The notes below the pieces were generated by a model that ran no database searches, was not told the origin of the DNA, and saw only the letters and a program-made list of their open reading frames with translations. Source: Nitrospirota bacterium (GTDB lineage: Bacteria; Nitrospirota; Thermodesulfovibrionia; Thermodesulfovibrionales; Dissulfurispiraceae). Taken from it: a stretch of DNA of 55,656 bases. The translations under genes and the position numbers were made by a program. Where the stretch lies: contig JBFLWF010000017.1 in the NCBI GenBank assembly GCA_040758355.1, positions 1 through 55,656 on the forward strand. The letters run 5' to 3'. Of this stretch, positions 3,414-55,271 are shown piece after piece (within the stretch, counting starts at the first letter, position 1; each line of letters starts with the position of its first letter).

Positions 3414-3756
3414 TCTTTCTTGCTGTTATGTTTCTATTAATTCCTCTGGATAGCAAATAAACCACAAGTTGATTCAAACTAACCCCTTCATCTTTTGCTT
3501 TTTCCATTAGGGCCTTATGTAAAGACTTCGGAGTTCTGGCAAGTATTTTACCGCTATATATACTCTCAGTCGAAGGATGCGGAATCTTTCTGCCTTCTCT
3601 CTTTGCGGTCTTTATCCATAATTCCTGAGCGATTTTTACCTGCTTTATAGCCTCCTCCTCTGTTTCGCCGAATGCGGAACATCCCGGCAAATCAGGAATA
3701 ACCGCTATAAAGCCTTTATCTTCTTCGCTGTAAAAAACTTTTATTGGATAATGCAT
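3409..3756 (-). CDS. hicB: HicB-family antitoxin
   Basis: PDLPGCSAFGETEEEA and YSGKILARTPKSLH...GVSLNQ motifs; downstream of hicA. Confidence 0.9.
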   Translation of the reverse strand: MHYPIKVFYSEEDKGFIAVIPDLPGCSAFGETEEEAIKQVKIAQELWIKTAKREGRKIPHPSTESIYSGKILARTPKSLHKALMEKAKDEGVSLNQLVVYLLSRGINRNITARKN

Positions 3757-3758
3757 CT

Positions 3759-4013
3759 CTAATCCTCCTTTAATTTCAGGTCATATTCCTCAATAATTTT
3801 CAGGAACTGCTTTGTCTGATAAGGCTTTACCTTACCGTTAACATTCTGAAAATTTAATATTTCCTCAATACCCTTTTTTGTATAAACCTTATGACTTCCT
3901 TTACCGCCTTTATATACGAATCCAAAACCCTCTGCCAACTTACAAATATCGTCGAATCTGATATCCTGCGGGTTATTCTTAACCCTGCCGAAAAGCTTTT
4001 GCAACTTTCCCAT
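3759..4013 (-). CDS. hicA: HicA-family toxin (likely start ATG 4013)
   Basis: GGKGSH motif, KVKPYQ; promoter TTGAAT-18-TATTAT with a palindromic operator just upstream of ATG 4013. Confidence 0.9.
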   Translation of the reverse strand: MGKLQKLFGRVKNNPQDIRFDDICKLAEGFGFVYKGGKGSHKVYTKKGIEEILNFQNVNGKVKPYQTKQFLKIIEEYDLKLKED

Positions 4014-4086
4014 AAAAAATAATATCACATATGATAGCGCCTATTCAAATGGAATTTTCAAATAAAACGTGTTGTATCCCGAGTGG

Positions 4087-4226
4087 CGCTAACGAATTTT
4101 CATTTGTGAAAATTGACTATGCAAAATCTTTGCACGCTTTTTGAAGGGAAGGCTAAAGTTAAAATAGCTTTGAAATTTTAAAATTAGAATGCTAAAATCA
4201 GCCACACTGCAAACACCTTGTTAGAC
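4087..4226 (-). other. Degenerate attC-like integron recombination site
   Basis: Minus strand GTCTAAC 13 nt after the HNH stop through GTTAGCG; 140 bp; internal symmetry only partial. Confidence 0.55.
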
Positions 4227-4239
4227 ATTAAAATCTCTT

Positions 4240-5304
4240 TTACAACTGCCCAGAAGATATAACAGATTTGGCAAATTCGTCAGCTTTATCCAATGAAAAA
4301 TTATTTTCTTTGAGAGAGTATTTCCCGTCTTCCTCCTTGTTCAATAAATATGTAGTTACAAAATTCGAACATAGTGAGCTATCCACAGCAGTGGAGAGTT
4401 TTACCGCAAATAAACCCATATCGTGCAAACGTATTAGGCAGAATAGGCAATCATCTTTAAACACAAGAGCAAGCAAGTACGTAAATTTGATATCTCCGAT
4501 AACATCTATTCCTGGATAGATTCCATTCCACTGCAATACAGGCGCATGCTGCCAATAATTATGTGGATATTGCGTACTCTTTAAGATATATGCTCTGGTC
4601 GCATCAAGAGCAGCGCTGTAACGTCTTTCTTCAGGGAGTTTAGAAAGTGCGTATGTATAGCAAATTTTTGCAAGTCCTCGATTTCGATCTTCAGTATTCC
4701 AATCCAATGTAAACCCGACACGTGCTTCTCCTGATGCAATTGATGAAGCAATTGGCAATAATCCTTTATGATTTGCCCAAGCAGTGAACATCTCAAGCAA
4801 TTCCCGCCAAGGATTGGCAGCTATAATATCGCCGTCAGCCCAGAACGCAGCAAATTTCGAACTATTTGGAATACCATCAACAATACTATCAAAAAAAGTT
4901 GGCAAGATCGGTCGCTTTATCTCATTTGGCAGGAAATAATAACTTATTGGTACCCTCTGTTCATCTGTAAGGATTATTTGCATGGGTCTTTCAAGTCTTT
5001 GTGCTGCGAGTCCTACACGTATAGGTGGAAATCCAGGTTGCACACTTACTGTCAAAGGATGACCATGACGGTCAAATCCAAACACTGGTTCATTCCGTCT
5101 GCCTCGGATGCCTAAGTGTGCTCTAATCATGGCGATGAAATTCGAGCCTTTTAGAAAACGTTGTTCAAACGATCTATTACATTGTGTTTGACAGTCTTCG
5201 CAAGAGGCATTAGGCAAGACCAAATTACTACCCAGTGCTGCAGGAATGATGTGCTCATCAGTAAGATTATCCTTTTCTTTTAAGCAAAATATACACCGAG
5301 GCAT
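4240..5304 (-). CDS. HNH endonuclease (HNH_5-like N-terminus) with uncharacterised C-terminal domain
   Basis: RCIFC...TDEHIIPAALG...SCEDCQTQCN zinc-binding HNH motif. Confidence 0.8.
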   Translation of the reverse strand: MPRCIFCLKEKDNLTDEHIIPAALGSNLVLPNASCEDCQTQCNRSFEQRFLKGSNFIAMIRAHLGIRGRRNEPVFGFDRHGHPLTVSVQPGFPPIRVGLAAQRLERPMQIILTDEQRVPISYYFLPNEIKRPILPTFFDSIVDGIPNSSKFAAFWADGDIIAANPWRELLEMFTAWANHKGLLPIASSIASGEARVGFTLDWNTEDRNRGLAKICYTYALSKLPEERRYSAALDATRAYILKSTQYPHNYWQHAPVLQWNGIYPGIDVIGDIKFTYLLALVFKDDCLFCLIRLHDMGLFAVKLSTAVDSSLCSNFVTTYLLNKEEDGKYSLKENNFSLDKADEFAKSVISSGQL

Positions 5305-5329
5305 TGTTTTATCCTATTGCATTTTATAT

Positions 5330-5398
5330 ATCTAACATTGTCTTTTATCTCTATCCCATATTCCATAGCATTATATACCTACAGAAATAGAGAATCAA
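5330..5398 (-). promoter_or_regulatory. Sigma70 promoter (TTGATT-17-TATAAT) followed by attI-like site ATAAAAG-ACAAT-GTTAGAT
   Basis: -35 at 5393-5398, -10 at 5370-5375; GTTAGAT at 5330-5336 upstream of the HNH start. Confidence 0.55.
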
Positions 5399-5507
5399 GG
5401 ATTGCGGGCAAGATGCTATTGGCATTTTAGCCGGTTGTCCGGCTTTTTGTTCCAATCACATAAACAGAGCGTCCAGACTAAAAAACCATCATTTATATAA
5501 ATCTGCA

Positions 5508-5822
5508 TTAAACAGCAGCCGGATGAAGCTCCGTATATGCCCTCACCTTTTCCAGCGCCTTTTTCTTTTTCTCCTTGACCCTGTAAAGCTCATACTGCGT
5601 TTGCAAGTTAATCCATAGCTCCTCTGATGTGCCAAAATACCTTGAAAGCCTCACCGCCATTTCAGGACTAATACCCCTCTTGTGGTTTATAATCTCGTTT
5701 ATCGTTCTAAATGTCGTATCAAGGTCTTTAGCAAGCTGAGTCTGCGATATCCCCAACGGCTCCATAAACTCATGGAATAAAATATCGCCCGGATGAGTGG
5801 GTTCTCTTTTAATGTCAAACAT
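5508..5822 (-). CDS. higA: HigA-family antitoxin (HTH)
   Basis: PTHPGDIL, ISPEMAVRLSRYFGTS, WINLQ motifs. Confidence 0.92.
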   Translation of the reverse strand: MFDIKREPTHPGDILFHEFMEPLGISQTQLAKDLDTTFRTINEIINHKRGISPEMAVRLSRYFGTSEELWINLQTQYELYRVKEKKKKALEKVRAYTELHPAAV

Positions 5823-5838
5823 ACTATTTGCCTCCTTT

Positions 5839-6120
5839 TCAGTGGTAATCGGTTATTTCTACTTCGTAAGCATCATGATCTTGCCATTTAAAGACTATTC
5901 TGTACTGGTCATTGATTCTGATGCTGTGCTTCCCTTTGTATTTCCCCTTTAGCATCTCCAGCCTATTTCCCGGTGGTCTTTTGAGATCGTCTAATCTTTT
6001 AGTCGCATTTAAATAATCCAGTTTCCGGATAGCGACATTACAAACACCTAAAGGGAATTTTTTACTTTTCCCTGTCATATAGAGTTGTTCAGTCTCTTTG
6101 TCTTTAAATGACCTAATCAC
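5839..6120 (-). CDS. higB: HigB/RelE-family toxin
   Basis: MIRSFKDKETE, PPGNRLE, HSIRINDQYRIVF, VEITDYH. Confidence 0.92.
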   Translation of the reverse strand: MIRSFKDKETEQLYMTGKSKKFPLGVCNVAIRKLDYLNATKRLDDLKRPPGNRLEMLKGKYKGKHSIRINDQYRIVFKWQDHDAYEVEITDYH

Positions 6121-6164
6121 TTTATACTAATATAACACATATAGTTATAAAACACAAATCTTAC

Positions 6165-6246
6165 CGTCATAAAATCGTAATAAATTCATTCCAAAAATGA
6201 GCTATTATTGCAAAAATATAAACCGCAGGTTCGATTCCCGCAGGGC
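6165..6246 (+). repeat. attR-like site B (shortened copy of site A)
   Basis: CGTCATAAAATCGTAATAAATT identical to 3227-3248, then CCGCAGGTTCGATTCCCGCAGGG. Confidence 0.75.
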
Positions 6247-6290
6247 AGAGCATGATGTATTTTTAATCACGGTATGATATATTATCTATC

Positions 6291-7535
6291 ATGACATCGA
6301 AAAATATTTATAAACCGCGGTGGCTTGCCGATAAACTTAGGTCTGCTGCGGAGTTCTCTCCTGTAATAGTCCTTTCCGGCGCAAGGCAAACAGGCAAAAG
6401 CACGCTCCTTCAAAATGAGCATCCGTTCAAGGACTGGCACTATATCACTTTTGATGACCTCGATACCCTTGCTATGGCTCAAAAAAGGCCTGACGAAATC
6501 CTTGCCATATCACATAACATGGTTGTTGACGAAGTGCAAAAGGCCCCCAAATTTCTGCATGCAGTCAAAAAAGCGGTTGATAAAGACAGATCGAGAAGGA
6601 TAGTCCTTTCAGGCTCGGCAAAACTTATCCTGATGAAGAGCGTCTCGGAGAGCCTTGCAGGCAGGGCAGCATACTTCGACCTAATGCCGTTCAGCTATGG
6701 CGAGTTTATGGAACGGAAGTACAGCGGCTGGCTCGAATCGTTTATTGAAACAGGCCGCTTGCCGTCATTGAAGATAAAAGAGTATACATTTGGGCAAAAG
6801 AGCGGAGATATCATCAGAATCCTTTTCAGGGGCTTCATGCCTCCTGCGACTTTTCTGGAAAAGGAAGAGCACATTTCTGCATGGTGGAGAGGATATATAA
6901 AGACATATCTTGAGCGTGATCTGAGAGATATTTCTGAAATATCGTATCTCCCGGACTTTAGAAAGATGATGGAACTGCTCGCTCTAAGGACGGCGAACAT
7001 CCTTAAACAGAGCGATATGGCGAGGGATACGGGGTTATCCCATGCTACTGCGGGACGGTATATCAATATCCTTGAGGAAACAGGCCTTGTGGCAAGGGTC
7101 AGGCCTTACTCCAAAAACATATCCAAAAGGCTCATAAAAGCGCCGAAGATTTTTATAACAGATCCCGGGCTTGCAGCCTCGCTCGGAGGATTCACCACAG
7201 CGGCCTCTATACCTGAAGGATTCAGAGGGGCTCTGCTTGAATCATACGTATTTTTAAATCTGACAGTCATGGCGTCACTTATCGAAGGAGATGTAATGTA
7301 TTTCAGGACACAGGGAGGAAAGGAACGGGAAGTCGATTTCGTATTGGAAAAAGGCAACAGGATAATCGGCGTTGAGGTTAAACTTGCTAACACTGTTTCT
7401 ATGAAGGACATTGAAAGCTTGTTGTTTCTGAAGGATGCGGCAAAGAGGTTTGCAGGCGGCCTTATCATATATTCCGGCTCTGAAATAAAACAGCTTACAG
7501 CAAATATCTTTGCCGTTCCGTGGAGTATATTCTAA
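6291..7535 (+). CDS. AAA_14 ATPase with DUF4143 / C-terminal PD-(D/E)XK-like domain
   Basis: GARQTGKST Walker A, VVDEVQ Walker B, TYLERD, EVDFVLE...GVEVK. Confidence 0.88.
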   Translation: MTSKNIYKPRWLADKLRSAAEFSPVIVLSGARQTGKSTLLQNEHPFKDWHYITFDDLDTLAMAQKRPDEILAISHNMVVDEVQKAPKFLHAVKKAVDKDRSRRIVLSGSAKLILMKSVSESLAGRAAYFDLMPFSYGEFMERKYSGWLESFIETGRLPSLKIKEYTFGQKSGDIIRILFRGFMPPATFLEKEEHISAWWRGYIKTYLERDLRDISEISYLPDFRKMMELLALRTANILKQSDMARDTGLSHATAGRYINILEETGLVARVRPYSKNISKRLIKAPKIFITDPGLAASLGGFTTAASIPEGFRGALLESYVFLNLTVMASLIEGDVMYFRTQGGKEREVDFVLEKGNRIIGVEVKLANTVSMKDIESLLFLKDAAKRFAGGLIIYSGSEIKQLTANIFAVPWSIF

Positions 7536-7544
7536 TCTGAGATG

Positions 7545-7607
7545 AAAATGAGCTATTATTGCAAAAACATAAACCGCAGGTTCGACCCCTGCAGGGGGCA
7601 CTTTAAT
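7545..7607 (+). repeat. attR-like site C
   Basis: AAAATGAGCTATTATTGCAAAAA shared with site B; CCGCAGGTTCGACCCCTGCAGGGGGCACTTTAAT near-identical to site A. Confidence 0.75.
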
Positions 7608-7615
7608 CGCCGCAT

Positions 7616-7646
7616 AAAAAAAGCCCCTCCCTATTCAGGGAGGGGC
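7616..7646 (-). terminator. Rho-independent terminator
   Basis: Perfect 10-bp stem GCCCCTCCCT/AGGGAGGGGC followed by T7 on the minus strand. Confidence 0.85.
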
Positions 7647-7658
7647 ACGATGGATACA

Positions 7659-7952
7659 TTAAAGTTTCGGGGAGACTTTAGGATAGTAGGCACTTGTAGC
7701 GTCGCTTGCGCTTCTGCCTGTTGATTTTGTATCCACCTTTGCACTAATATTAGGGGAGACCGCGGGATGGTAGGTAGCGATGTCGGTTTTACGCTCGCTT
7801 CCTGCCTTTGTATCTACTTTTCCGCTGATGTTTGGCGACACTGCCGGATAGTAGGTGCCTGCGGTCCCAAAATCAGCCGCATGCGAAGTTGTTACAAAGG
7901 CTACTGCCATGGCGATAACGCCTGCTACGAGATAAGATCTCTTTCCTTTCAT
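7659..7952 (-). CDS. Small secreted protein with three Y-x-P-x-V-S-P repeats (97 aa)
   Basis: RBS GAGGAGG; signal peptide MKGKRSYLVAGVIAMAVAFVTTSHA; repeats TYYPAVSPNISGKVDTK, TYHPAVSPNISAKVDTK, AYYPKVSPKL; terminator downstream. Confidence 0.8.
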   Translation of the reverse strand: MKGKRSYLVAGVIAMAVAFVTTSHAADFGTAGTYYPAVSPNISGKVDTKAGSERKTDIATYHPAVSPNISAKVDTKSTGRSASDATSAYYPKVSPKL

Positions 7953-8089
7953 GGTTTTTTCCTCCTCTACTCTTTTTGTGATGCAGCATCCTCCACGATT
8001 CTGTTGGAGTTGCTTCCCGTCGTCCGAAGCAGAAGACAGGATTGCATTCACCATGATTAAAGTTTATACTAACAGCACAACTCCGTAAA

Positions 8090-8117
8090 ATGATTGAAAT
8101 CATATGATTTAAGTCAT
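8090..8117. promoter_or_regulatory. Tandem ATGAT-N4-(A/G)TCAT palindromes (Crp/Fnr-like boxes)
   Basis: ATGATTGAAATCAT + ATGATTTAAGTCAT; same motif at 15989-16002. Confidence 0.5.
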
Positions 8118-8210
8118 AATTCGTTATCCTTCAATATGGCGAACAAAAGCAGGAATAATAATAGATACCATCACACTCGCATGGAAATAATTAGATCATA
8201 GCACTGCATT

Positions 8211-8306
8211 CTTTGCATTTCTGCAAATAATTTTGCAGAAATGCAAAGACCTACGACCAAACACCTCCAAGAAAATCAATGACTTAGTTCTGGCAAGGAT
8301 TATGCT
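8211..8306 (+). promoter_or_regulatory. Sigma54-type promoter (8291-8306) with upstream perfect 17-bp inverted repeat (8211-8248)
   Basis: TGGCAAGGATTATGCT has GG-N10-GC spacing; CTTTGCATTTCTGCAAA-TAAT-TTTGCAGAAATGCAAAG. Confidence 0.6.
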
Positions 8307-8343
8307 TATTATTTTCAAAAAACAAAGATGGAGGAATGCGAGG

Positions 8344-8499
8344 ATGAAAGCATATGCAGAAAATTTTGATGAGGAGAATTTTTGTCCCTTTACACTGGAA
8401 CCGTTCGAGGATTGCAGTGTCTCAAGAAAAGAAAACAATAAAATATGTCCATTTGCCCTCGAACCCTGTTTTAAGGCAGCAACGTTAACTTATAAGTAA
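8344..8499 (+). CDS. 51-aa hypothetical protein with duplicated CPFxLEP motif
   Basis: GGAGG/GAGG upstream; NFCPFTLEPFEDC and KICPFALEPCF; lies behind the sigma54-like promoter. Confidence 0.55.
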   Translation: MKAYAENFDEENFCPFTLEPFEDCSVSRKENNKICPFALEPCFKAATLTYK

Positions 8500-8537
8500 A
8501 CAAATATATTCTTCTCTTCTTTCGGCTACATATTGAA

Positions 8538-8565
8538 AACTCCCTGCAGCAAGCTGCAGGGAGTT
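8538..8565. repeat. REP-like palindrome
   Basis: AACTCCCTGCAGC-AA-GCTGCAGGGAGTT; related copy at 55426-55446. Confidence 0.7.
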
Positions 8566-8641
8566 CGCTTGCTATCCATTTATTGCAGATATGCCAGCAA
8601 ACTGTTAGTATTGAAGTAATTCGGATATAAAAGGTGTTCTT

Positions 8642-19045: not shown

Positions 19046-19999
19046 ATGGAGGTTTTAAAACAGGCAAAGGAACTGAGGAAACTATGGGGAGGATTCTGGT
19101 CAGCAAGGGTTTTATTAACTGCTAATAATTTCGGGGTTTTCGATTACCTTAAATCTCCAAAGACAGCAATAGAAATTGCGAAATTATTAAAGACAGATAG
19201 CAGGGCTACAGAGATATTGCTCGATGCACTTGCAGGTCTCGGCCTTTTGAAGAAGTCAGGGAATAAATATAAAAACACACCAACCGCAAACCGCTTCCTT
19301 ATAAAAGAAAGTCCATATTATCACGGCGACATAATAAAACATGCAGATACACTCTGGAAGAACTGGTCAGGGCTTGATGAAATAATAAAAACAGGGAGGC
19401 CGAATCGCTCAGCGCATGACCACGAGGCATTCATCAAGGGCATGCATAACATCGCTTCTTTAAAGGCAAAAGATGTAATAAAGGCGATTGATTTAAAAGG
19501 AGTGAGAAAGGCGCTCGACTTAGGCGGCGGCCCTGGTACATATTCTATTGAAATGGCAAAGAAAGGCTTATCCGTCACACTTTTCGATCTGCCTGAGACC
19601 ATAAAGATCGCAAAAGAAATAATTAAAAAATCAAAAGCAAAGGACATAGATTTTATTGAAGGGGATTTTATTTCAGATGACATAGGAAACGGCTATGACC
19701 TGATATTCATAAGCCAGGTTTTGCATGCTTACTCGGAAAAAAGCTGCATGAGCCTTATCAAAAAATCAAAGGCAGCGCTAAATCCCAACGGCAGAATTGT
19801 CATTCAGGAATTTTACATCGACAAAAACAGGACAACACCTCCGCAGTCCGCACTCTTTTCGGTCAACATGCTCGTCAATACATACGGCAGATGCTATCCG
19901 CCATCTGAAATTAAGCAATGGCTCACAAAGGCAGGATTCAAAAATATTAGGCATAAAATATTCAATGACAGCGTGATGGTGGAAGGGGTGAATAAGTAA
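19046..19999 (+). CDS. O-methyltransferase (dimerisation + Methyltransf_2)
   Basis: ALDLGGGPGTYS, FDLPETI, GDF. Confidence 0.9.
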   Translation: MEVLKQAKELRKLWGGFWSARVLLTANNFGVFDYLKSPKTAIEIAKLLKTDSRATEILLDALAGLGLLKKSGNKYKNTPTANRFLIKESPYYHGDIIKHADTLWKNWSGLDEIIKTGRPNRSAHDHEAFIKGMHNIASLKAKDVIKAIDLKGVRKALDLGGGPGTYSIEMAKKGLSVTLFDLPETIKIAKEIIKKSKAKDIDFIEGDFISDDIGNGYDLIFISQVLHAYSEKSCMSLIKKSKAALNPNGRIVIQEFYIDKNRTTPPQSALFSVNMLVNTYGRCYPPSEIKQWLTKAGFKNIRHKIFNDSVMVEGVNK

Positions 20000-20141
20000 A
20001 ATACGAAAATGCCGTAAACGGGTATCAATTGATTTGTGATTTTTTCTTTGAAGAAGCCATCAAATGTGCTATATTTTAATCATTAACTTGGGAAAACCGG
20101 AAATTTGGATATTAAATGTTGTGCTAAAATATAGATAAAAA

Positions 20142-20399
20142 ATGCCTATAATCAGCAGGTTTTTTGGTATAGTTATTTATATGTTCTGGCGTGACCATCA
20201 GCCTCCCCACTTCCATGCGAGATACGGGGACGAAGAAATTATCGTTGAAATTGAAACGGGCAAGGTCACAGGCCATATTGCTCAAAGGGCATTGAATATG
20301 ATTCAAGAATGGAGAGAACAACATAAAGAGGAATTGCTGGCTGACTGGAAGCTGGCTGAACAAAATAAACCATTAGTTCGAATTAGTCCATTGGAGTAA
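20142..20399 (+). CDS. DUF4160-family protein (putative TA component)
   Basis: MPIISRFFGIVIYM...DHQPPHFHARYG. Confidence 0.9.
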   Translation: MPIISRFFGIVIYMFWRDHQPPHFHARYGDEEIIVEIETGKVTGHIAQRALNMIQEWREQHKEELLADWKLAEQNKPLVRISPLE

Positions 20400-20402
20400 A
20401 AA

Positions 20403-20648
20403 ATGATACTTCATGTCAAAGAAGCTAAATACCTTCATGATTACGTGATTTGGCTGAGATTTAATGATGGCGCTGAAGGTGAAGTCAACCTCAAAGATGA
20501 ACTTTACGGGGAAATTTTCGAACCGCTCAAGGATTTGGAAATGTTCAAATCATTCAGGTTAGACCCAGTTCTTGAGACTATTGTTTGGGAAAACGGAGCC
20601 GACCTTGCTCCAGAATTCCTATATGACAAGATGAAAGTCTTAGCATAA
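20403..20648 (+). CDS. DUF2442-family protein (putative TA partner)
   Basis: LRFNDG, FEPLKD, TIVWENGADLAPE. Confidence 0.9.
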   Translation: MILHVKEAKYLHDYVIWLRFNDGAEGEVNLKDELYGEIFEPLKDLEMFKSFRLDPVLETIVWENGADLAPEFLYDKMKVLA

Positions 20649-20702
20649 TCAATCACTATCGGTGGCCAGGCCATTGCCTGCCGCACAGTTCAGGCGTTAA
20701 GG
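20643..20702 (+). other. attC-like site
   Basis: GCATAAT...GGTGGCCAGGC-CATT-GCCTGCCGC...GTTAAGG; imperfect hairpin overlapping the stop codon. Confidence 0.6.
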
Positions 20703-20729
20703 CGCTAGCAGATAAACCATAAACGATCG

Positions 20730-21404
20730 TTGCAAATGAAAAAGCCAGTTTTGCAGAACTATGGCATCACTGAAATTGATCTAAAGAGAGCCGGGTCAGT
20801 CAAGAAATGGCTTAAGGTTTTCGCCATTGTTCAAATGTTCCCTGGCTGGTGGCTTCTTGGATATGGTAATAGAGGCTGGTGGATGTGGATTTTCTTCATT
20901 ATTGCAGTACCTCCCTATGGGCCACTAATTTTGTATTTCATTATAAAAGGGATATTTCTACTATTTTCTCGTTCTTTTCGAGCCGTAAGCAAGTATGAAT
21001 CGGACCGTAATGCTTTTGAAAAATGGTGGATCCGAACTAAGGAAATGTTCTGGCTGTCCTTATCAGGCAGGCAATTTGAACATGAATTGGCAAATCTCTA
21101 TCGTATGCTTGGGCACAAAGCAGATGTGACTACCACCAGTGATGATAAAGGAGTTGATATATGGCTGATCCGAAATGGACAGCGAGTACCTGTACAATGC
21201 AAAGCTCACAAGCGCCCTATAGGCCCTGCCGCAGCGAGAGAATTTTATGGCAGCATGAATCATTTCAAAGCTGAGAGAGGAATTTTAGCATCTTTGTCAG
21301 GTTTTACCAAGGGTGTTTTAGAATACACGCGAGACAAACCGATAGAGTTGGTAGATTTAAACTGGATATTGAATAACCAGAAAAAACTTGAGAATTACGA
21401 GTAG
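20730..21404 (+). CDS. Mrr-like restriction endonuclease with N-terminal transmembrane helices
   Basis: GRQFEHELA...DKGVDI...VQCK (D-QxK Mrr motif); hydrophobic Trp-rich N-terminus. Confidence 0.82.
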   Translation: MQMKKPVLQNYGITEIDLKRAGSVKKWLKVFAIVQMFPGWWLLGYGNRGWWMWIFFIIAVPPYGPLILYFIIKGIFLLFSRSFRAVSKYESDRNAFEKWWIRTKEMFWLSLSGRQFEHELANLYRMLGHKADVTTTSDDKGVDIWLIRNGQRVPVQCKAHKRPIGPAAAREFYGSMNHFKAERGILASLSGFTKGVLEYTRDKPIELVDLNWILNNQKKLENYE

Positions 21405-21416
21405 TCAATGAATACC

Positions 21417-21467
21417 GCCCTAACAACAGGCTTCAACACCGACTGGCAATCATTGCCAGCCGGTGAG
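21417..21467 (+). other. attC-like site truncated on the right by an IS1182 remnant
   Basis: GCCCTAAC-AACAG-GCTTCAA then hairpin CACCGACTGGCAAT/ATTGCCAGCCGGTG. Confidence 0.7.
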
Positions 21468-21700
21468 ATTAGTCGCTGAACCCCTCATAAAATCCCATAT
21501 GATAACAGAGAACAAGCCTTTACACCAGTTAGCAAGAAAGGAGCAATATGGCGAGATACAAAGAATACGACTACAGCCATGGCAAATTCATACCAATACA
21601 TCTCGACAAGCAGATACTTCCCGGGACTTTCGAATATATCCTGCACTATCTGATAGACAATAAACTATCTTTCGATATTTGATTTGCGTTATAACAATGC
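21465..21700 (+). pseudogene. IS1182-family transposase N-terminal fragment (ATG 21548)
   Basis: MARYKEYDYSHGKFIPIHLDKQILPGTFEYILHYLIDN, frameshift, then SIFDLRYNN. Boundaries approximate. Confidence 0.65.
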
Positions 21701-21849
21701 CGGGTCCGGCGCTCTGGAACTGTTGAGCCGGTATCCAGCTATATCTGCTCCACATTGGGATTGGATATATCTACTCTAAAGGGAACATGAAGCATAAATA
21801 CAAAACAAAAACATCGAGGAAGTCGAGAAAGAGGAATATTAGGGATATT

Positions 21850-21967
21850 AGGGACACATCCCATATTTCTTGATAGAGAGGCAGTCATTTAGTAGAGTCT
21901 CTACATGTCGAGGATGGTGAAACAGTTGCAACAAAAAAAGAAGGGATAAATATGGGGATGTGTCCCT
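21850..21967. mobile_element. MITE-like element with ~19-bp terminal inverted repeats
   Basis: AGGGACACATCCCATATTT ... AAATATGGGGATGTGTCCCT. Confidence 0.65.
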
Positions 21968-21979
21968 GTTTATCTAAAT

Positions 21980-22033
21980 CACGGGATCGGCTGAAAACTG
22001 CCCCGCTCCCTATGAGTTCTTCTGGCGTTATGT
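21980..22033 (+). other. Right part of an attC-like site
   Basis: GGGATCGG...CCGCTCCC hairpin then TGAGTTCTTCTGGC-GTTATGT. Confidence 0.55.
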
Positions 22034-22079
22034 CCAATTATCGTCTTGCCTTATCTACGCCATTGACGTATAATAAATT

Positions 22080-22397
22080 ATGGTCATTATAGAGACCCCG
22101 ATATTCACGAAACGAATTCGGGAATTAATGCCAGATGAAGAATATCGGCTTTTGCAAACTCATTTGGTCAATAGACCGGATGCCGGAAAAATAATATCGG
22201 GAAGCAGAGGACTAAGAAAACTCCGGTGGTCTACTGGCGGGCATGGAAAGAGGGGCGGCATTAGGGTCATTTATTATTGGTTTGTATCCCAAGAAGTTAT
22301 CCTTCTCCTTTTTGCATACCCAAAGAGTGAACAGGACGATTTGACAACAGACCAACTAAGACAACTTAAGAAAATTATAGAAAGGGAGTATCTATGA
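22080..22397 (+). CDS. RelE/HigB-2-type toxin
   Basis: IIETPIF, GLRKLRW, GKRGGIRVIYY, AYPKSEQDDLT; own promoter TTGCCT-17-TATAAT. Confidence 0.9.
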   Translation: MVIIETPIFTKRIRELMPDEEYRLLQTHLVNRPDAGKIISGSRGLRKLRWSTGGHGKRGGIRVIYYWFVSQEVILLLFAYPKSEQDDLTTDQLRQLKKIIEREYL

Positions 22398-22750
22398 AAA
22401 AAGAACTATTTGAAGAGTTGCTTGAAAGCGTTAAGCAGGGCGCAGCTATTATGAAGGGTAAAATGAAACCGTCCCGCAGCATTGAGTTTCCAGAGTCTGA
22501 AGTGAGGAAAATACGTGAACGATATGGATTATCTCAGGACAAATTCGCGTCTCTGATGGGAATAAGCGTTGCTACACTTCGCAATTGGGAACAAGGGCGG
22601 CGCAAACCCGAAGGACCATCCCGTGTACTGTTGCGGGTTGCTGCTGAACATCCTGAAGCCATACTTGACATTGCAAGACGCCAAAAAGCAAATAAGACAG
22701 GATTAACAAAGCGCTCTACCGGATCGCGGCTTGCCACACGTTCCCGGTGA
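22394..22750 (+). CDS. HigA-2/NadS-type HTH antitoxin (C-terminal tail reads through attC)
   Basis: LFEELLESV, LSQDKFA, TLRNWEQGRRKPEGP. Confidence 0.9.
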   Translation: MKKELFEELLESVKQGAAIMKGKMKPSRSIEFPESEVRKIRERYGLSQDKFASLMGISVATLRNWEQGRRKPEGPSRVLLRVAAEHPEAILDIARRQKANKTGLTKRSTGSRLATRSR

Positions 22751-22763
22751 GCTTTTGGGCTTA
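22701..22763 (+). other. attC-like site with decayed right core
   Basis: GATTAAC-AAAGC-GCTCTACCGG...CCGGTGAGC (one extrahelical base), ending at the convergent gene's stop. Confidence 0.65.
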
Positions 22764-22997
22764 TTCGGTCACAGAATTATCATCATTTCTTCCCTCTATG
22801 ACCTTTTCTGCTGTTTCCTTATCCTCTTCTCTTACTAAGACCTTTATCTCTCCCATTTTGCCGATATTCACAGGATATGGACTCACCTTTGATGACCTCA
22901 AGACCACGGGTATTCCGCCGCTTTCCAGCAGGTCTTTTATTATCTCTGCCTCAATAGGGTCATAAGTAACAAATACCACGACCCATTCATCGCTCAT
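22761..22997 (-). CDS. DUF2007-like putative signal-transducing protein
   Basis: [15 protein letters not shown]...VLVREED. Confidence 0.8.
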
Positions 22998-30917: not shown

Positions 30918-31015
30918 GGGAGTGCATAGGGTTCTGGTGTCCCTCCCGGACTTCAAATCCGGTGTTGCCGCCCAAAAGGTGGCAGGGTGGGTTCGATTCC
31001 CACACGCTCCCGCCA
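30918..31015 (+). tRNA. selC: tRNA-Sec (anticodon UCA)
   Basis: 98 nt; CGGAC-TTCAAAT-CCGG region with UCA anticodon, long variable arm, GTGGG-TTCGATT-CCCAC T-arm, GCCA end. Confidence 0.92.
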
Positions 31016-36254: not shown

Positions 36255-36344
36255 TGGCGGAGGGGGAGGGATTCGAACCCCCGGTAGAGTTGCCCCCACA
36301 ACGGTTTTCAAGACCGCCGCTTTAAACCGCTCAGCCACCCCTCC
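36255..36344 (-). tRNA. tRNA-Ser (anticodon UGA)
   Basis: GGAGGGGTGGCTGAGCGG...CTTGAAA...long variable arm...GGTTCGAATCC...CGCCA. Confidence 0.95.
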
Positions 36345-49860: not shown

Positions 49861-49874
49861 GGAGGCATTACATT

Positions 49875-50291
49875 ATGGCAAGCAAGGAATTATTAGAAAA
49901 ACTCAATGACGCAATAGCGAGAGAAATGCAGGTAAGCATCCAGTACATGTGGCAGCATATAATGGTCAGGGGGATTAATGCACAGGCAATCGGCCCTATA
50001 TTCAGGCAAACAGCCATTGCCGAAATGATGCACGCGGAACTCATTGCAGAGAGGCTCGACTATCTCGGAGGCACGCCGACAACAAAGCCTGCACCCATCG
50101 ATATCGGTAAGAACACAAAGGATATGCTAAAGATAGACAAAAAGGCCGAAGAGGAAGCAATTGCAATGTATAAAGACATCATAAAGCTTGCAGAGAAGGA
50201 GAGCGACTATACGACCAAAAAACTGTTTGAGCAGATACTTGCAGACGAAGAGAATCACCATAATACCTTCAGCAGCCTTTTGGAAGATTAG
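49875..50291 (+). CDS. Ferritin/bacterioferritin-like di-iron protein
   Basis: AREMQ..IQY, EMMHAE, EEEAI..Y, DEENH. Confidence 0.9.
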   Translation: MASKELLEKLNDAIAREMQVSIQYMWQHIMVRGINAQAIGPIFRQTAIAEMMHAELIAERLDYLGGTPTTKPAPIDIGKNTKDMLKIDKKAEEEAIAMYKDIIKLAEKESDYTTKKLFEQILADEENHHNTFSSLLED

Positions 50292-50304
50292 TTGAGGAGG
50301 CTCT

Positions 50305-51519
50305 ATGAAGGCTGTTGAACTCAAAAACGGCATATACTGGGTAGGTGCAATCGACTGGGCAGTGAGGGACTTTCACGGCTATGAAACCCCACGCGGAACA
50401 ACGTATAACAACTATCTGATAATGGATGAAGAAATAACCCTTCTGGATACGGTTAAATACGACTTTTCTGACATTACTATTAAAAATATAAGGTCTGTTG
50501 TTGATCCTTCAAAGATAAGAAATGTTGTCATAAACCATATAGAGAACGACCATGTAACGAGCATCGACAAAATTATGGATTTAACGCCCAATGCCGCCAT
50601 CTATATAACAGAGAAGGGCAAAAAGGGTCTTGACAGGTTCTTTGATACTTCGAAATGGAATATAAAAATCGTAAAAACAGGGGATACCCTTAATATAGGC
50701 AAGAGGACTTTGCTCTTTATAGAAACTCCCATGCTTCACTGGCCTGATTCAATGATGACCTATATAAAGGAAGAAAAGATACTCATCAGTCAGGATGCAT
50801 TCGGCCAGCATATCGCATCTGCGGTCAGATTCGATGACGAGTTTATAACTTGTCAGTCAATGTCTGAGCTTGAAGATGCAGTTATAGATTATTATGCAAA
50901 TATCCTTATGCCATTCGGACAATTGATAAAGGCAAAGATTGCAGACATCCAGAAGTTAGGACTGGAAATAGAGATGATCGCCCCTGACCACGGCATCATA
51001 TGGGAGGCAAATCCGCAGAAAGTTTTGCAGATGTATCTGGACATGGCAAACGGTAGAACAAACCTTAGCGTTTCTATTATTTATGACACCATGTGGCACA
51101 GCACAGAACAGATGACATTACCAATTATGCAGGGGATAAAAGATGCAGGAGTTGAATGCAAGGTTATTAAGCTAAGGGCTACGCCAATGAGCATTGCAAT
51201 TAAGGAGTTCTGGAAATCGAGAGGCTGTCTCATAGGTACGCCGACTCTTAACAATATCATGTATCCCAGTGTTGCCCACTTCCTGACGCATCTTCGCGGC
51301 TTAAGGCCAAAGAACCGCATTGTCGGCGCATTCGGAAGCTATGGATGGGGAGGCGGTGCAGTAAAAGAGGCATATGAAGACTTCAAGCGAATGGGACTCG
51401 AGATATTTGAACCAGGGTTACAGATACTTTTTAAGCCTTCGTTTGAAGACGAGACAAAATGCTATGAATTTGGAAAAGAGTTTGCAAAAAAAGTAAAGGA
51501 ATATCATCAGAAATTTTAA
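50305..51519 (+). CDS. fprA: FprA A-type flavodiiron protein
   Basis: GTTYNNY, NHIENDH, HWPDSM, DAFGQH, PDHG, flavodoxin FGSYGWGG. Confidence 0.93.
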   Translation: MKAVELKNGIYWVGAIDWAVRDFHGYETPRGTTYNNYLIMDEEITLLDTVKYDFSDITIKNIRSVVDPSKIRNVVINHIENDHVTSIDKIMDLTPNAAIYITEKGKKGLDRFFDTSKWNIKIVKTGDTLNIGKRTLLFIETPMLHWPDSMMTYIKEEKILISQDAFGQHIASAVRFDDEFITCQSMSELEDAVIDYYANILMPFGQLIKAKIADIQKLGLEIEMIAPDHGIIWEANPQKVLQMYLDMANGRTNLSVSIIYDTMWHSTEQMTLPIMQGIKDAGVECKVIKLRATPMSIAIKEFWKSRGCLIGTPTLNNIMYPSVAHFLTHLRGLRPKNRIVGAFGSYGWGGGAVKEAYEDFKRMGLEIFEPGLQILFKPSFEDETKCYEFGKEFAKKVKEYHQKF

Positions 51520-51530
51520 GGAGGCATATT

Positions 51531-52025
51531 GTGAGTAAAGTTGAGAAGGATTTATTGGAGGCATTTGCAGGCGAATCACAGGCCAACAGAAAATATCTTG
51601 CCTTTGCAAAAAAGGCTGAAGAGGAAGGATACAGGCAGGTTGCAAAACTATTCAGGGCTGCTGCAGAGGCAGAAACAGTGCATGCACACAATCACTTAAG
51701 AGAGGCAGGAGGAATAAAATTCACAAAGGAAAACCTCGATGAGGCAATAAACGGCGAAACATACGAATTCCAGAAGATGTATCCACAGATGATAGAAGAT
51801 GCAAAGACTGAGGGAAATAACGGTGCATTAAGAAGCTTCAATTTCGCCAATGAGGTAGAAAAAATTCATGCAGAACTTTACAAGAAAGCACTCGAAAACC
51901 TCGGCAAAAATCCAGATGTTGATTATTATGTATGCCAGGTCTGCGGCAACACTGTTGAAAACGAAGCACCTGATAAATGCCCCATCTGCGGAGCAAAAAA
52001 ACAGGCATTTAAGAAAATAGACTGA
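51531..52025 (+). CDS. rbr: Rubrerythrin
   Basis: AFAGESQANRKY, AETVHA, VEKIH, CQVCG...CPICG. Confidence 0.94.
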   Translation: MSKVEKDLLEAFAGESQANRKYLAFAKKAEEEGYRQVAKLFRAAAEAETVHAHNHLREAGGIKFTKENLDEAINGETYEFQKMYPQMIEDAKTEGNNGALRSFNFANEVEKIHAELYKKALENLGKNPDVDYYVCQVCGNTVENEAPDKCPICGAKKQAFKKID

Positions 52026-52609
52026 TGCCAAAAAATATAATGAAGGTGCTGGCATTTCAGGGCAGTCCGAGGATAGAGGGGAATACAGACATACTACTGA
52101 AGGAAACATTAAAGCCCATACATGAATCAGGCCATGATATCAGATTATTCAAACTCAATTCCATGAACATAAAACCCTGCCAGGACTGCGGGGGATGCGA
52201 CAAAACAGGTAAGTGCATCATAAACGATGATATGGATGAGATATACGATGCCATAAGGGAGGCGGACAGGATAATCCTCGCCTCCCCTATCTTCTTTTTC
52301 GGCGTAAGCGCACAGGCAAAGATAATGATAGACAGGTGTCAGGCATTCTGGTGTGAGAAGTATCTTTTGAACAAACCAATTCCTGAAGGACGATACGGAA
52401 GAAAGGGGCTTTTATTATTGGTCGGGGGAATGAAAAAAGAGGTCGGCATCCAGTGTGCAGAGGCAACGGCAAAGGCATTCTTCAGGACAGTCAGTGTTTC
52501 AGAACACGAGACATTGAGCTTTACAGGAGTTGATGCAAAGGGCGCAATCCTTGAGCACCCAACAGCGTTGAAAGAGGCGTACGAAGCAGGAAAAAAATTG
52601 GTAGCCTGA
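52025..52609 (+). CDS. Flavodoxin-fold / iron-sulfur flavoprotein
   Basis: GSPRIEGNT, CQDCGGCDKTGKC, ASPIFF. Confidence 0.9.
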   Translation: MPKNIMKVLAFQGSPRIEGNTDILLKETLKPIHESGHDIRLFKLNSMNIKPCQDCGGCDKTGKCIINDDMDEIYDAIREADRIILASPIFFFGVSAQAKIMIDRCQAFWCEKYLLNKPIPEGRYGRKGLLLLVGGMKKEVGIQCAEATAKAFFRTVSVSEHETLSFTGVDAKGAILEHPTALKEAYEAGKKLVA

Positions 52610-52663
52610 TAATAGAGGGCTGGGCTGAGTTGAAGCAAAATTAATTTAAAGAGGGAGGAAGCC

Positions 52664-52978
52664 ATGGCAAAGTTACCGGAGCAGTATCTGAACATCAAAA
52701 AGAGGTTTAAAGGGTATTTCAAGGCTATTGATAATCTTGGAAAGGCTGCAAAGGCAGCAGGCCCTATTAATGAAAAGACCGCACATCTGATACAATTGGC
52801 AGCCGCTGCTGCCATAAGGTCTGAGGGGTCGGTCCATTCCCACACAAGGAGGGCATTGGAGGCAGGGGCAAAGCCTGAGGAAATCTACCATGCAATAATA
52901 CTGCTTTCAAGCACAATCGGATTCCCGACTGTCTCTGCTGCATTGAGCTGGGCAGATGATATTATAAAAGGGAAATAA
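52664..52978 (+). CDS. Carboxymuconolactone decarboxylase (CMD/AhpD-like) protein
   Basis: LIQLAAA...SH.RRALEAGA..EEI...TIGFP. Confidence 0.9.
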   Translation: MAKLPEQYLNIKKRFKGYFKAIDNLGKAAKAAGPINEKTAHLIQLAAAAAIRSEGSVHSHTRRALEAGAKPEEIYHAIILLSSTIGFPTVSAALSWADDIIKGK

Positions 52979-52989
52979 GTTCTCTGCGC

Positions 52990-53014
52990 AAGGCTGATGC
53001 GAAGCATCAGCCTT
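52990..53014. terminator. Hairpin between convergent genes (probable terminator)
   Basis: AAGGCTGATGC-GAA-GCATCAGCCTT. Confidence 0.7.
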
Positions 53015-53024
53015 CTATTTGTAT

Positions 53025-53501
53025 TTACATAAAAGGTTTGACGAGCTGTTTATCTGCATCTTCAAGTCTTTCAGCAAGTATCTCCGAGAATTTCTTGTAG
53101 AACTTAAGCAGCAGCGGTGCGTATTGAGGGTTTCCGTGTTCCTTTTGAATATCCTCGGAATTGAACCTGAGCACATACGTCTCATCTTCAGCCACTATAT
53201 CCGCACTCCTCGGTTTTCCTGTCACAAATGACATCTCACCAAAACTCTGTCCCATTGAAAGGTTGCATATAGTCTTTTTATAAGCCCCGACCCCTGTCCG
53301 CTTTCTGATGGAAACACTTCCCTTAAGAATAATGGAAAAGTTTTTTTCGGATGACCCCTCTTTTATAATGATGTCTCCGGGCTGAAACCTTATCCACTGC
53401 GTAATCTTGAGGAGCAGGGACAGATCTTCATCTGTGAACTCCCTGAAGAAGGGGATCTTTTTCAGTACTTCTATTATCTTTTCTTGACTAACATTTTCCA
53501 T
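53025..53501 (-). CDS. Cyclic-nucleotide-binding domain protein
   Basis: IPFF, IIKEG, FGEMSF...PRSAD. Confidence 0.9.
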   Translation of the reverse strand: MENVSQEKIIEVLKKIPFFREFTDEDLSLLLKITQWIRFQPGDIIIKEGSSEKNFSIILKGSVSIRKRTGVGAYKKTICNLSMGQSFGEMSFVTGKPRSADIVAEDETYVLRFNSEDIQKEHGNPQYAPLLLKFYKKFSEILAERLEDADKQLVKPFM

Positions 53502-53528
53502 TTTTGTTGTTAACTGGGTTATGCCCGC

Positions 53529-53822
53529 TTACAAAATATTCTCCAATGGTCTTGCTCCATGACAAATTGCAACAATTTCGATAATCTTTTCTTTAATACG
53601 GTAAACAATTCTATAATTCTCATAAATCTTCTCTCTCAAATTCTCATCGTTATATTCTGGAACAATGCGCCCTGCTTTTGGAAACTGAGCGATGGCTTTA
53701 ACAATTGCGACAATTTTCTTGGCAAAAAGAGCAGCATAATATCTTGAATCTTTAGCAATATAATCACAGATTTCTTCAAAATGCAAAGCAGCGCGGGGTG
53801 ACCACTTTATACTGTAAGCCAT
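53529..53822 (-). CDS. RelE/ParE-family toxin
   Basis: IKWSPRA, YIAKDS, GRIVPE, YRIVY, HGAR. Confidence 0.9.
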   Translation of the reverse strand: MAYSIKWSPRAALHFEEICDYIAKDSRYYAALFAKKIVAIVKAIAQFPKAGRIVPEYNDENLREKIYENYRIVYRIKEKIIEIVAICHGARPLENIL

Positions 53823-53995
53823 TTGGACATCCGCTTTTCAATTTCTTCATGAGGAATCCCTTTGCCCTCATCCAATTCTTTCAACCCGGCATCAACCTGT
53901 AGTTTAAAATACAGTTCAGCCATAATGTCATCAACCGTCACCTCTTCAGGCAAGGATTGAATCATCTGAATAACCTGCTGCTTAACTCCCGACAT
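53807..53995 (-). CDS. Putative antitoxin
   Basis: Small acidic protein (LPEEVTVDDIM...GLKELDEGK) overlapping the toxin start. Confidence 0.8.
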   Translation of the reverse strand: MSGVKQQVIQMIQSLPEEVTVDDIMAELYFKLQVDAGLKELDEGKGIPHEEIEKRMSKWLTV

Positions 53996-54043
53996 TTAAA
54001 TCACCTCCTCAATGTCCAAACAAATATACCATTTAACTCAACC

Positions 54044-54151
54044 CTATAACAAGCGGGCAGTTAACCGTTCAAGCACTTGAGAAGGCAACGCCTTTGGGTG
54101 TTAACCTCTCTACGAGTCGTGGACAAGCATCCCTGTTATCTGCCGTTGCAG
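54044..54151 (-). other. attC-like site
   Basis: Minus strand CTGCAAC-GGCAGATAAC ... inner hairpin ... GTTAACTGCC-CGCTT-GTTATAG. Confidence 0.55.
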
Positions 54152-54194
54152 GTAATCTTTTCTTTACTAATGGTCGCTGTCCCTACTATTTTGA

Positions 54195-55106
54195 CTACTC
54201 AAAATAATAAGGAACAATTTCTTCAAAAATAACACCCCCATCAATGAGAACTAAAGTAATTTTGTTATCTTCACAAATAGCCTCTAACCGCTCATCTATA
54301 GTGTCAGCAATAATTACAAACTTAAATTTATCAGTTGCTTTTATGTCCTTATCCTTGTATCTCTCATTAATTTTTTCAAAATTCCTTTTAATCCAAGCAG
54401 AGTAAGTTAAAAATTGTGTTTCAACCGTTCGATGCCTACCTCTGACTTTATTCTCTACAACAACTAATTCTCTCGTGGTTTTATCTATGCAGAAGAAATC
54501 TGGTTTATTACGCATGAAAGGTTCATTCCATGTAATAACAGGTTGGCGATCAATAATTTCTAAATTTGCTAACGCTTTATGTATATTTCTTTCAAGCCAA
54601 TCCTCCATGAACTGTTCATTCTCAAAGATATAATCCAAGTTCTGATATTTCTCCAATCTGTCCTTATATTTAATCAGTTCCTCATTTTCTTCCCTCAACT
54701 TTTTATTTTCCTTAACTAATTCAACAAGTAATTTAAAAATATCTGGACTAGTTTCCTTAGGAATAATTTCAGTAACTTTCTTATCTTCTATTTTTTCTTC
54801 GACTTCCTTTGGTTTCTCAAGTGGTTCTTCTCTAAATATTTTAATAAAGTTTTGATTGAAAGGTTGAAGGTATATTATGTCTCCATCATTAAGTTGTCCA
54901 AAAAAAGGCTTGCATGCTAATCTCAGGCCCCATCCTGCATCAAGGAAATGTTTATTCGGGAATTTACCTATAAATGTTTCCAGCGTGAAGGTGGTTCCGA
55001 TATAATCCTTGAATAACTTTTTTGCTATATCATAATCTCTGCCCGAAATAGCAATTTGACCGTATTTAATTTCCCATGATGCAATTTTCTTTTTAATAAA
55101 TTCCAT
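54195..55106 (-). CDS. Protein with N-terminal beta-rich domain, coiled coil and NucS-like PD-(D/E)XK nuclease domain
   Basis: EQFMEDWLERN...IIDRQ...PDFFCID...VVVENK...Q.LTY; AT-rich. Confidence 0.72.
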   Translation of the reverse strand: MEFIKKKIASWEIKYGQIAISGRDYDIAKKLFKDYIGTTFTLETFIGKFPNKHFLDAGWGLRLACKPFFGQLNDGDIIYLQPFNQNFIKIFREEPLEKPKEVEEKIEDKKVTEIIPKETSPDIFKLLVELVKENKKLREENEELIKYKDRLEKYQNLDYIFENEQFMEDWLERNIHKALANLEIIDRQPVITWNEPFMRNKPDFFCIDKTTRELVVVENKVRGRHRTVETQFLTYSAWIKRNFEKINERYKDKDIKATDKFKFVIIADTIDERLEAICEDNKITLVLIDGGVIFEEIVPYYFE

Positions 55107-55271
55107 TATTGTGTTCCCTCACTTTTAAGAGTGAATCAATTTCGTACAACTTGTTCATAAACGCACCTCTATTTCTCTTTTTATCCCGATTTGGGATGAT
55201 GGACGACATTTTTACCAATACTTACTCCCCATGCTTCAAATGGTATCAGACTGTATTTTCCGAGTCAACAC

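Follow-up and report, generated by a model that had tools for sequence, protein, structure and literature searches.

How do gene cassettes behind promoters of their own come to lie at three unlinked places on a contig without an integron integrase, and could such arrays still be loaded? The window analysed here, the complete 55,656-nt contig C17 from a 2.77-Mb, 99% complete assembly of a Nitrospirota bacterium (genome G000), raises this question at the loci W1 (minus strand, 5398-3409), W2 (plus strand, 19998-22766) and W3 (minus strand, 55268-53509). A preliminary description of the window had reported a promoter-like box, a nuclease-like gene and toxin-antitoxin (TA) pairs at each of them and the lack of an intI gene. 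All these features are present at the places given, and the integron integrase (IntI) profile TIGR02249 (cut-off 265 bits) matched nothing on C17. We judge it fairly probable that the three loci are cassette arrays behind the leftover front ends (heads) of three integrase lineages, likely as a result of repeated integrase loss, that the W1 type has likely spread on tRNA islands, and that an intact IntI encoded on contig C3 would still load at least W2-type sites. Cassette anatomy, homology of the heads to complete integrons, a series of intI states from intact to absent, carriage on islands and variable cargo carry this reading.

Cassettes bounded by attC sites without a nearby intI are known as clusters of attC sites that have no integrase (CALINs) or as single such sites (SALINs). 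Loss of intI and an integrase encoded elsewhere are among the explanations proposed for them (PMC4889954, 10.1101/2022.09.11.507474), and their origins and possible use in trans are discussed in PMC4889954 and PMC9668308. With four attC-like sites W2 is a CALIN, while one site plus a stump at W3 and one site at W1 are of SALIN size.

Heads of three integrase lineages

Genomes related to G000 are labelled G001, G002 and so on; G001-G004 belong to the same genus, and the family set comprises 68 genomes. The arrays had been described as lacking a neighbouring integrase and as served by an IntI encoded elsewhere in the genome. Such a gene exists: an intact intI is located at C3:122491-123804 (423 bits), the sole match in G000 above the cut-off. 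Its product has all catalytic motifs and the IntI insertion, and the gene is followed by attI and an array that reaches the contig end. A second intI, on C6, is internally deleted, with an N-terminal piece that resembles lineage 2 (46-54% versus 30%). Of this second, W1-type lineage G000 holds broken copies only (C6 and C4). IntI above the cut-off was found in 15 of the 41 genomes searched; G002, G003 and G004 gave no match at E 1e-60.

What the preliminary description missed is that the leaders of the arrays are, by sequence homology, relatives of integron promoter/attI platforms. On the same grounds the W2 head belongs to the IntI lineage that is intact on C3 (lineage 1), the W1 head to a second IntI lineage (lineage 2), and W3 is the relic of a co-oriented XerA-like integron.

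5330..5460, minus strand: W1 head, comprising a left arm, the cassette promoter and the attI of lineage 2, spaced as beside the intact IntI in G022:C84
19998..20124, plus strand: W2 head, comprising what is left of the intI-attI spacer, an extended -10 box at 20065 and the attI of IntI lineage 1, 88% identical over 60 nt to the C21 head
55207..55268, minus strand: W3 head (promoter and first codons of the deleted co-oriented integrase gene), with the same promoter at the orthologous G001 site

In the W1 head the -35 box lies at 5398, the -10 box at 5375 and the attI crossover, between G and TT, at 5336 (minus strand). The spacing of -35, -10, a conserved hexamer and the crossover is identical to that in the platform of the intact lineage-2 IntI in G022:C84. 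Patterns of the W1 and W2 heads were scanned over the 68 family genomes, with the reversed pattern as chance control. The W1 pattern gave 20 matches in 10 genomes and none when reversed. At these 20 heads intI is intact once, broken three times, reduced to a stub of 17-19 codons twice and absent 14 times, and promoter and attI keep their exact spacing in the 14 integrase-less heads.

The W2 crossover, again between G and TT, lies at 20118 (plus strand). The 120 bp before the first W2 cassette are homologous to the intI-attI spacers of two complete integrons (C3 and G001:C64), and the head is also homologous to four intI-less sites in G000 (two on C21, one each on C9 and C10). The W2 pattern matched 39 times in 20 genomes versus 17 times when reversed, so part of the 39 matches is due to chance. 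Judged within 1.5 kb, a full intI lies upstream of 4 of the 30 W2-type heads retrieved, a piece upstream of 2 and none upstream of 24. An exact 7-base complement of the core occurs no more than 1.5 kb after the head at 12 of 20 W1-type and 12 of 30 W2-type heads, versus 33 of 400 random sites.

The GTT cores proposed earlier are real attI crossovers at W1 and W2; the W3 core (about 55151) is unsupported: the cassette end holds no complement to it, and it is not found at the same place in G002. The proposed sigma70 promoters are conserved across genomes, and it is this sequence conservation that speaks for them, since promoter-like boxes alone were not above chance in the three regions (8 observed versus 10.8 expected, 7 versus 8.1 and 11 versus 7.9). 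Compared with a complete integron, C17 has no intI beside attI; attI and promoter precede the array at W1 and W2, as judged by homology, and a promoter alone does so at W3.

G000 as a whole contains about 14 heads whose integrase is missing or broken (lineage 1 accounts for five and lineage 2 for seven, the others being the C6 relic and W3), several of them damaged or without a matching cassette end. Candidates on C11 and, from a looser scan (12 matches and 3 with the reversed pattern), on C2, C7:461, C23, C27 and C51 were left out of this count. One of them, a lineage-2 promoter/attI-like pattern at C11:10116-10181, precedes an ordinary iron-sulfur operon and may be a domesticated head or a chance match.

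Cassettes and attC sites

4240..5304, minus strand: first W1 cassette, HNH-domain protein of 354 aa (Pfam HNH_5, residues 4-52)
4184..4226, minus strand: short degenerate attC of the HNH cassette, aligned with the terminal attC of six relatives
4093..4188, minus strand: arm D, conserved tRNA-island backbone directly after the last attC, with profile matches on C14, G002:C45, G060 (3 loci), G061 and G022
3409..4048, minus strand: HicA-HicB pair (Pfam HicA_toxin, HicB) with its own promoter at 4048-4019
20142..20702, plus strand: W2 cassette 1, DhiT/DhiA-like TA pair (DUF4160/DUF2442) with attC at 20643-20702, left core AAC changed to AAT
20730..21481, plus strand: W2 cassette 2, predicted membrane-anchored Mrr-family nuclease (Pfam Mrr_cat; hydrophobic stretch at about residues 50-90) with attC at 21418-21481
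21549..22033, plus strand: broken open reading frame (ORF), two inverted ends resembling repetitive extragenic palindromes (REP-like ends; 21851-21862 and 21954-21966) and damaged attC (about 21972-22033)
22080..22766, plus strand: W2 cassette 4, RelE-like toxin and helix-turn-helix antitoxin with terminal attC at 22701-22766, right core GTT changed to CTT
54195..55106, minus strand: 303-aa protein with B3-like N-terminal barrel, coiled coil and EndoMS/NucS-like PD-(D/E)xK nuclease domain, from alignment and model
54058..54183, minus strand: degenerate attC-like site (54143-54058) as in the co-oriented integron type, with sites of the same family in G001:C75 and G002:C38, and a REP-like end (54183-54172)
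53509..54065, minus strand: W3 cassette 2, ParD-like antitoxin and ParE toxin, terminal attC cut off

The cores at cassette start and end are complementary at 6 of 7 positions for the W1 HNH cassette, at 5 of 7, 6 of 7 and 4 of 7 for the W2 DhiTA, Mrr and RelE cassettes, and at 8 of 8 for the W3 ParDE cassette; HicAB and the start of the W3 nuclease gene lack such complementarity. The preliminary description had every gene followed by an AAC...GTT hairpin; complementary ends are present for HNH, the three intact W2 cassettes and ParDE, but not for HicAB, and the hairpins are mostly degenerate. No attC was found 3' of hicB, where the stretch terminates on a tRNA-Arg repeat, and a cassette nature of W1 HicAB is not supported by the sequence. 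One core is damaged in each W2 attC and in the W1 attC, whose left core is intact and whose right core has A for G. A long W1 attC of 165 bp ending at 4068 was dropped, because the alignment resolves it into the short attC followed by arm D.

For a genome-wide check by covariance, as the preliminary description had suggested, model R1 was trained on 18 attC sites adjoining intact IntI genes, none of them from the window; the covariation in its alignment exceeds that of 500 of 500 shuffles. In G000 the four C3 training sites scored 45-71 bits and two further sites 22 bits. Within the window three of the four W2 sites matched weakly and near chance (15.2 bits at the terminal attC, then 10.3 and 9.7 bits; E 0.11-2.9), with two chance-level matches of similar size elsewhere, and no attC site of W1 or W3 was matched. 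Only two of the six attC sites in the window have folds clearly better than those of shuffled sequences (z -4.3 and -2.1); the former, in W2 cassette 2, has a good stem and a right core changed from GTT to GCT. Under unconstrained folding one W2 site stands clearly above shuffles. A heuristic hairpin scan (score 26) recovered the four C3 attC sites and none of those in the window. The attC sites of the window are mostly degenerate.

Of the three nucleases, the W1 HNH protein has 24 homologues (46-84% identity) with invariant C4, C7, E17, H18, C35, C38 and N43. Its family is absent from 400 of 400 other genomes of the phylum, a pattern expected of cassette cargo. A plasmid search with the W2 Mrr protein returned distant restriction endonucleases only. 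The 303-aa protein of W3 has no Pfam match, and PDB and Pfam sequence searches were uninformative; however, D203, E218, K220, Q231 and Y235 are invariant in a 44-row alignment, and the best Foldseek matches of its model (mean predicted local distance difference test score, pLDDT, 82.8) are EndoMS (E 1.2e-3) and B3 domains, at E values of about 1e-3 to 4e-3. A single-sequence model (pLDDT 46.6) was set aside.

The antitoxin frame of W2 cassette 4 (22394-22750) runs through the terminal attC; its 118 aa exceed the family profile by about 20 residues.

W1-type heads on tRNA islands

At tRNA genes, integrative mobilisable elements and phage satellites form small islands that combine a tyrosine integrase, Rep and att repeats at the tRNA 3' end with TA and defence cargo. 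In the islands described below the cargo slot differs: it consists of an integron promoter and attI and lacks intI. The surroundings of W1 have the corresponding borders.

3363..3421, plus strand: island att site that repeats the 3' end of tRNA-Arg(CCT) and bounds the W1 islet on the left, 98% identical over 59 nt to the intact tRNA-Arg on C56
5508..6120, minus strand: HigB-HigA pair upstream of the W1 head (Pfam HigB-like_toxin, HTH_3)
6194..6245, plus strand: second island-end repeat, degenerate, which bounds the W1 islet on the right (BLAST self matches 92-97%)

W1 is therefore bounded on both sides by direct repeats of the tRNA 3' end, the right one degenerate, and a third such repeat lies at 7545-7607. 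The orientation of W1 between the repeats is that of island-borne heads. Between them we found no island integrase or Rep, so that W1 reads as a deletion derivative. On C56 an island integrase adjoins the intact tRNA-Arg. C56 and the window start with the same insertion sequence (IS) end, and the two contigs are probably adjacent; positions 1-7607 would then consist of stacked tRNA-Arg islets, with a PIN gene and fragments of IS3-like and IS4-like elements.

The subtype that includes W1 shares a left arm and the 95-bp arm D after the last attC. Arm D follows 7 of 8 heads of this subtype and none of 7 other lineage-2 heads, and the loci are situated at tRNA-Arg, -Glu, -Leu and -Val. The clearest carrier is a 6.1-kb island on C14 of G000, which has 45-bp tRNA-Glu repeats, a G2P-type Rep, a phage-type integrase, a W1-type head with two cassettes and no intI; all four genus relatives have an empty site there. 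In G060 (C20) a W1-type head sits in a tRNA-Arg island with an island integrase. Of 301 genomes of the order, 4 from two genera contain arm D. It was also met behind a restriction-modification cassette without a recognisable head and joined straight to the left arm; from its several contexts it belongs to the island backbone.

The subtype pattern was further found at 5 metagenome and 5 genome-collection loci; these were left out of independent counts because they are largely DNA already counted. Named records with a W1 head are metagenome-assembled genomes of Nitrospirae, and viral contigs gave no match to the subtype pattern. Terminal inverted repeats of the kind found in miniature inverted-repeat transposable elements were not seen around the W1-subtype head, and the idea that orphan heads share a site-specific left boundary at the start of intI was rejected, since the boundaries vary.

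A tRNA-Asn island in G022 (L179:5893-11610, on C2) consists of a G2P-type Rep, a cassette with a methylase and an MvaI/BcnI endonuclease, attC, arm D and an integrase, with no recognisable head.

A bolder version of these ideas can be put forward tentatively, as possible rather than probable: a non-autonomous class of mobile integron, in which tRNA islands with their own integrase and rolling-circle Rep would carry an integrase-free promoter-attI pad, borrow the IntI of the host and deposit the loaded pads at tRNA-Arg, -Glu, -Leu and -Val in species of Nitrospirota, one IntI serving a dozen first-position slots per genome.

W3, a relic of a co-oriented integron

W3 lies downstream of nuoN, at a site that is empty in G003. 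G001 has the same promoter there, followed by an integrase gene facing the cassettes and by five cassettes. G000 and G002 share a deletion that joins the first integrase codons to cassette DNA, and the right junction of W3 is the same in G002. Both cassettes differ, however, the cargo being the nuclease and ParDE in G000 and a radical-SAM gene and a PIN-type pair in G002. The G001 integrase reaches 226.6 bits with TIGR02249, lacks the IntI insertion and scores 249 bits with the XerA-like profile NF040815 (cut-off 220). By these profile scores the cognate enzyme of the W3 type is not of the IntI family but XerA-like. It occurs in 2 of the 68 family genomes and was not found in G000. Probably W3 lost its attI along with the integrase and is frozen.

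At L081:717-5100 (G001:C75), L171 and L172 the XerA-like integrase is accompanied by cassette hairpin sites of different geometry and by extra inverted repeats at the cassette ends.

Are the integrase-less heads still in use?

A comparison of relatives, likewise suggested in the preliminary description, revealed different first cassettes at the same integrase-less site in three genome pairs (G000:C25 and G002:C45; G060:C39 and G061:C242; G001:C19 and G061:C193), in addition to the differing contents of W3 in G000 and G002. Such differences suggest reloading in trans. Cassettes are also shared between arrays of G000: one without an ORF occupies the fourth place of the C3 array and the first place behind a lineage-2 head on C4 (92% over 113 nt), and DhiTA, the opening cassette of W2, recurs in second place in another array at the C21 end and C6 start (94% over 476 nt). 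The site of the C3 integron is unoccupied in G003 and G004, and in G002 it holds a head of the same lineage that lacks intI. No head is present at the W2 site of G002, where repeats and a HicBA pair lie across a break between contigs; the neighbours of this site differ in G001, G003 and G004. In sequencing run X1 a contig of depth 40 (flanks about 240) links 19986 to 22761, directly or with DNA in between; X1 is probably the source sample and hence not independent. Runs X2-X4 contain the DhiTA cassette with other flanks, and X2 also the RelE cassette with another flank.

We propose that integrons would land repeatedly and lose intI, while promoter and attI would be kept for expression of the cargo. 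One head type, that of W1, would be moved by small tRNA-targeting islands, and an IntI encoded elsewhere would load the first position. TA pairs would hold the islets in place, damaged attC sites would fix older cassettes, the intact attI of W1 and W2 could accept new ones, and the nucleases would act against phages. Judged from sequence relatedness, loading in trans by the C3 IntI is most likely for W2, doubtful for W1 and unlikely for W3.

Several points weigh against this proposal. G002 has heads, yet no IntI was matched in it at E 1e-60. The cassettes shared within G000 differ by 6-8% and are not recent moves. Service of W1 is doubtful because the C3 IntI is just 46-54% identical to lineage-2 IntIs. 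As to the islands, just one W1-subtype head adjoins both an island integrase and a Rep and one more an integrase alone, the head L192 has no tRNA in the 6.3 kb examined, and arm D also follows a lineage-1 (W2-type) head and occurs without any head. Differing contents at one site can also result if a hot spot received separate insertions (at the C3 site the head of G002 belongs to another subtype) or if a longer ancestral array underwent deletions. For a defence role PADLOC returned weak domain matches only (PDC-S02/ZorD/type IV for Mrr, PDC-S11 for the NucS-like protein) and none for HNH.

The main rival is that the heads are frozen: complete integrons lost their integrase and have been dead since, and species differ by separate integrase loss or cassette deletion. 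Nearly all window attC sites have a damaged core or stem, W3 is without attI, REP-like ends lie on or in several attI and attC sites, and head-bearing G002 yielded no IntI, all as expected of dead arrays. Furthermore, Xanthomonas strains with a common intI lesion are described as usually having identical arrays (10.1101/2025.06.18.660453). Against this stand the exact spacing of attI and promoter in the 14 integrase-less lineage-2 heads, the exchange of both W3 cassettes between genomes that share the deletion junction, and the cassette type of the C3 array in first position behind an orphan head. We regard complete freezing as rather unlikely.

The preliminary description had instead inferred a single dispersed network of nuclease-plus-TA defence arrays, purpose-built and all served by one IntI. 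An intact IntI does exist, nuclease-like and TA genes are found at all three window loci, and defence and TA cassettes are described as common in integrons (10.1101/2024.07.02.601686). With leaders from three integrase lineages, however, one network with one IntI is too simple: the three head types are unrelated, the C3 IntI is cognate for W2 only, and the cognate integrase is broken for W1 and not found for W3. Nor is the pairing of nuclease and TA genes kept as a rule at the other G000 heads, where restriction-modification genes occur only at C9 and the cargo is mostly unknown, membrane or TA genes; HicAB, moreover, is not cassette-bound. This explanation is very improbable.

Finally, cassettes dropped by IntI at attG sites that happen to sit behind promoters, a proposed source of SALINs and small CALINs that needs only a GWT triplet (10.1101/2022.09.11.507474) and would suit W2, whose right end coincides with the crossover point of the last attC, are hardly credible here, since the DNA left of each first core is an integron-platform homologue that is absent from the empty sites of relatives; for W1 and W2 this homology already refutes such an origin.

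Comparison with known systems

CALINs and defence cassettes are already known. In the published definitions of CALINs and SALINs, as far as they are stated there, attI was sought only in classes 1-3, and 95% of CALINs are given as lacking a nearby intI pseudogene; for these reasons the origin of small CALINs has been open. It is stated that attI does not insert into genomes by itself (10.1101/2022.09.11.507474). Unlike in the descriptions of CALINs and SALINs, attI and promoter are kept here, a series of erosion is visible, and three lineages meet in one 2.8-Mb genome.

Among the closest systems are the Xanthomonas integrons (10.1101/2025.06.18.660453), in which intI is likewise described as repeatedly inactivated by frameshift or deletion, with extra CALINs at few conserved loci. 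There, according to the same account, one ancestral locus (ilvD) carries arrays that are mostly stable after the loss, whereas we find many loci, several lineages and changed cassettes. Integrons of the Treponema type also have an intI that faces the cassettes (PMC3607928). Compared with what is described for them, the G001 enzyme differs in being XerA-like, below the integron-integrase cut-off and without the IntI insertion; the left spacer of its sites is one base long and their stem is unbroken. In Vibrio cholerae the cassette Epona is described as a Mrr_cat domain fused to a membrane domain, and Sirona and Nemetona as HNH-like cassettes (10.1101/2024.07.02.601686). The W2 Mrr protein resembles Epona by domain description, and the three nucleases of the window are candidates for an antiphage role. 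Literature searches for orphan attI or multiple attI in integrons and for integron-like tyrosine recombinase cassettes in Bacteroidetes returned no paper in the library searched, and one for integron attC in Nitrospirota an archaeal paper only.

In this lineage two routes to small CALINs are directly visible: intI erodes step by step while promoter and attI stay behind, and such heads are carried by tRNA islands. Should orphan attI sites take up cassettes in trans, a genome would have many strongly expressed first positions instead of one, and a mobile island could sample the cassette pool without carrying an integrase. Among the three defence candidates, one combines an unusual B3-like barrel with an EndoMS-like domain.

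Other observations

REP-like ends of elements of the REP-associated tyrosine transposase (RAYT) type lie repeatedly on or just inside attI and attC sites of G000.

C3:129164
C6:91384
C9:72335-72380
C10:9162-9895
C21:12697-13437
window 21851-21966
window 54172-54183

Those of W2 match the ends flanking a RAYT-like transposase on C21, and the one on C9 lies exactly at the attI crossover. Possibly RAYT-type elements target integron sites, as these positions would suggest.

Different species have integrons of different lineages or subtypes at shared gene starts (prmC, acpS, ribD), which hints that these starts may be landing hot spots for whole integrons.

G000:C6:91486-91934 and G001:C64
G000:C3 and G002:C23
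G001:C19 and G061:C193

The second DhiTA copy is split by an IS with an 8-bp target duplication (C21 end / C6 start), where the two contigs probably join. The window further contains genes for tRNA-SeC (30918-31015) and tRNA-Ser (36255-36344).

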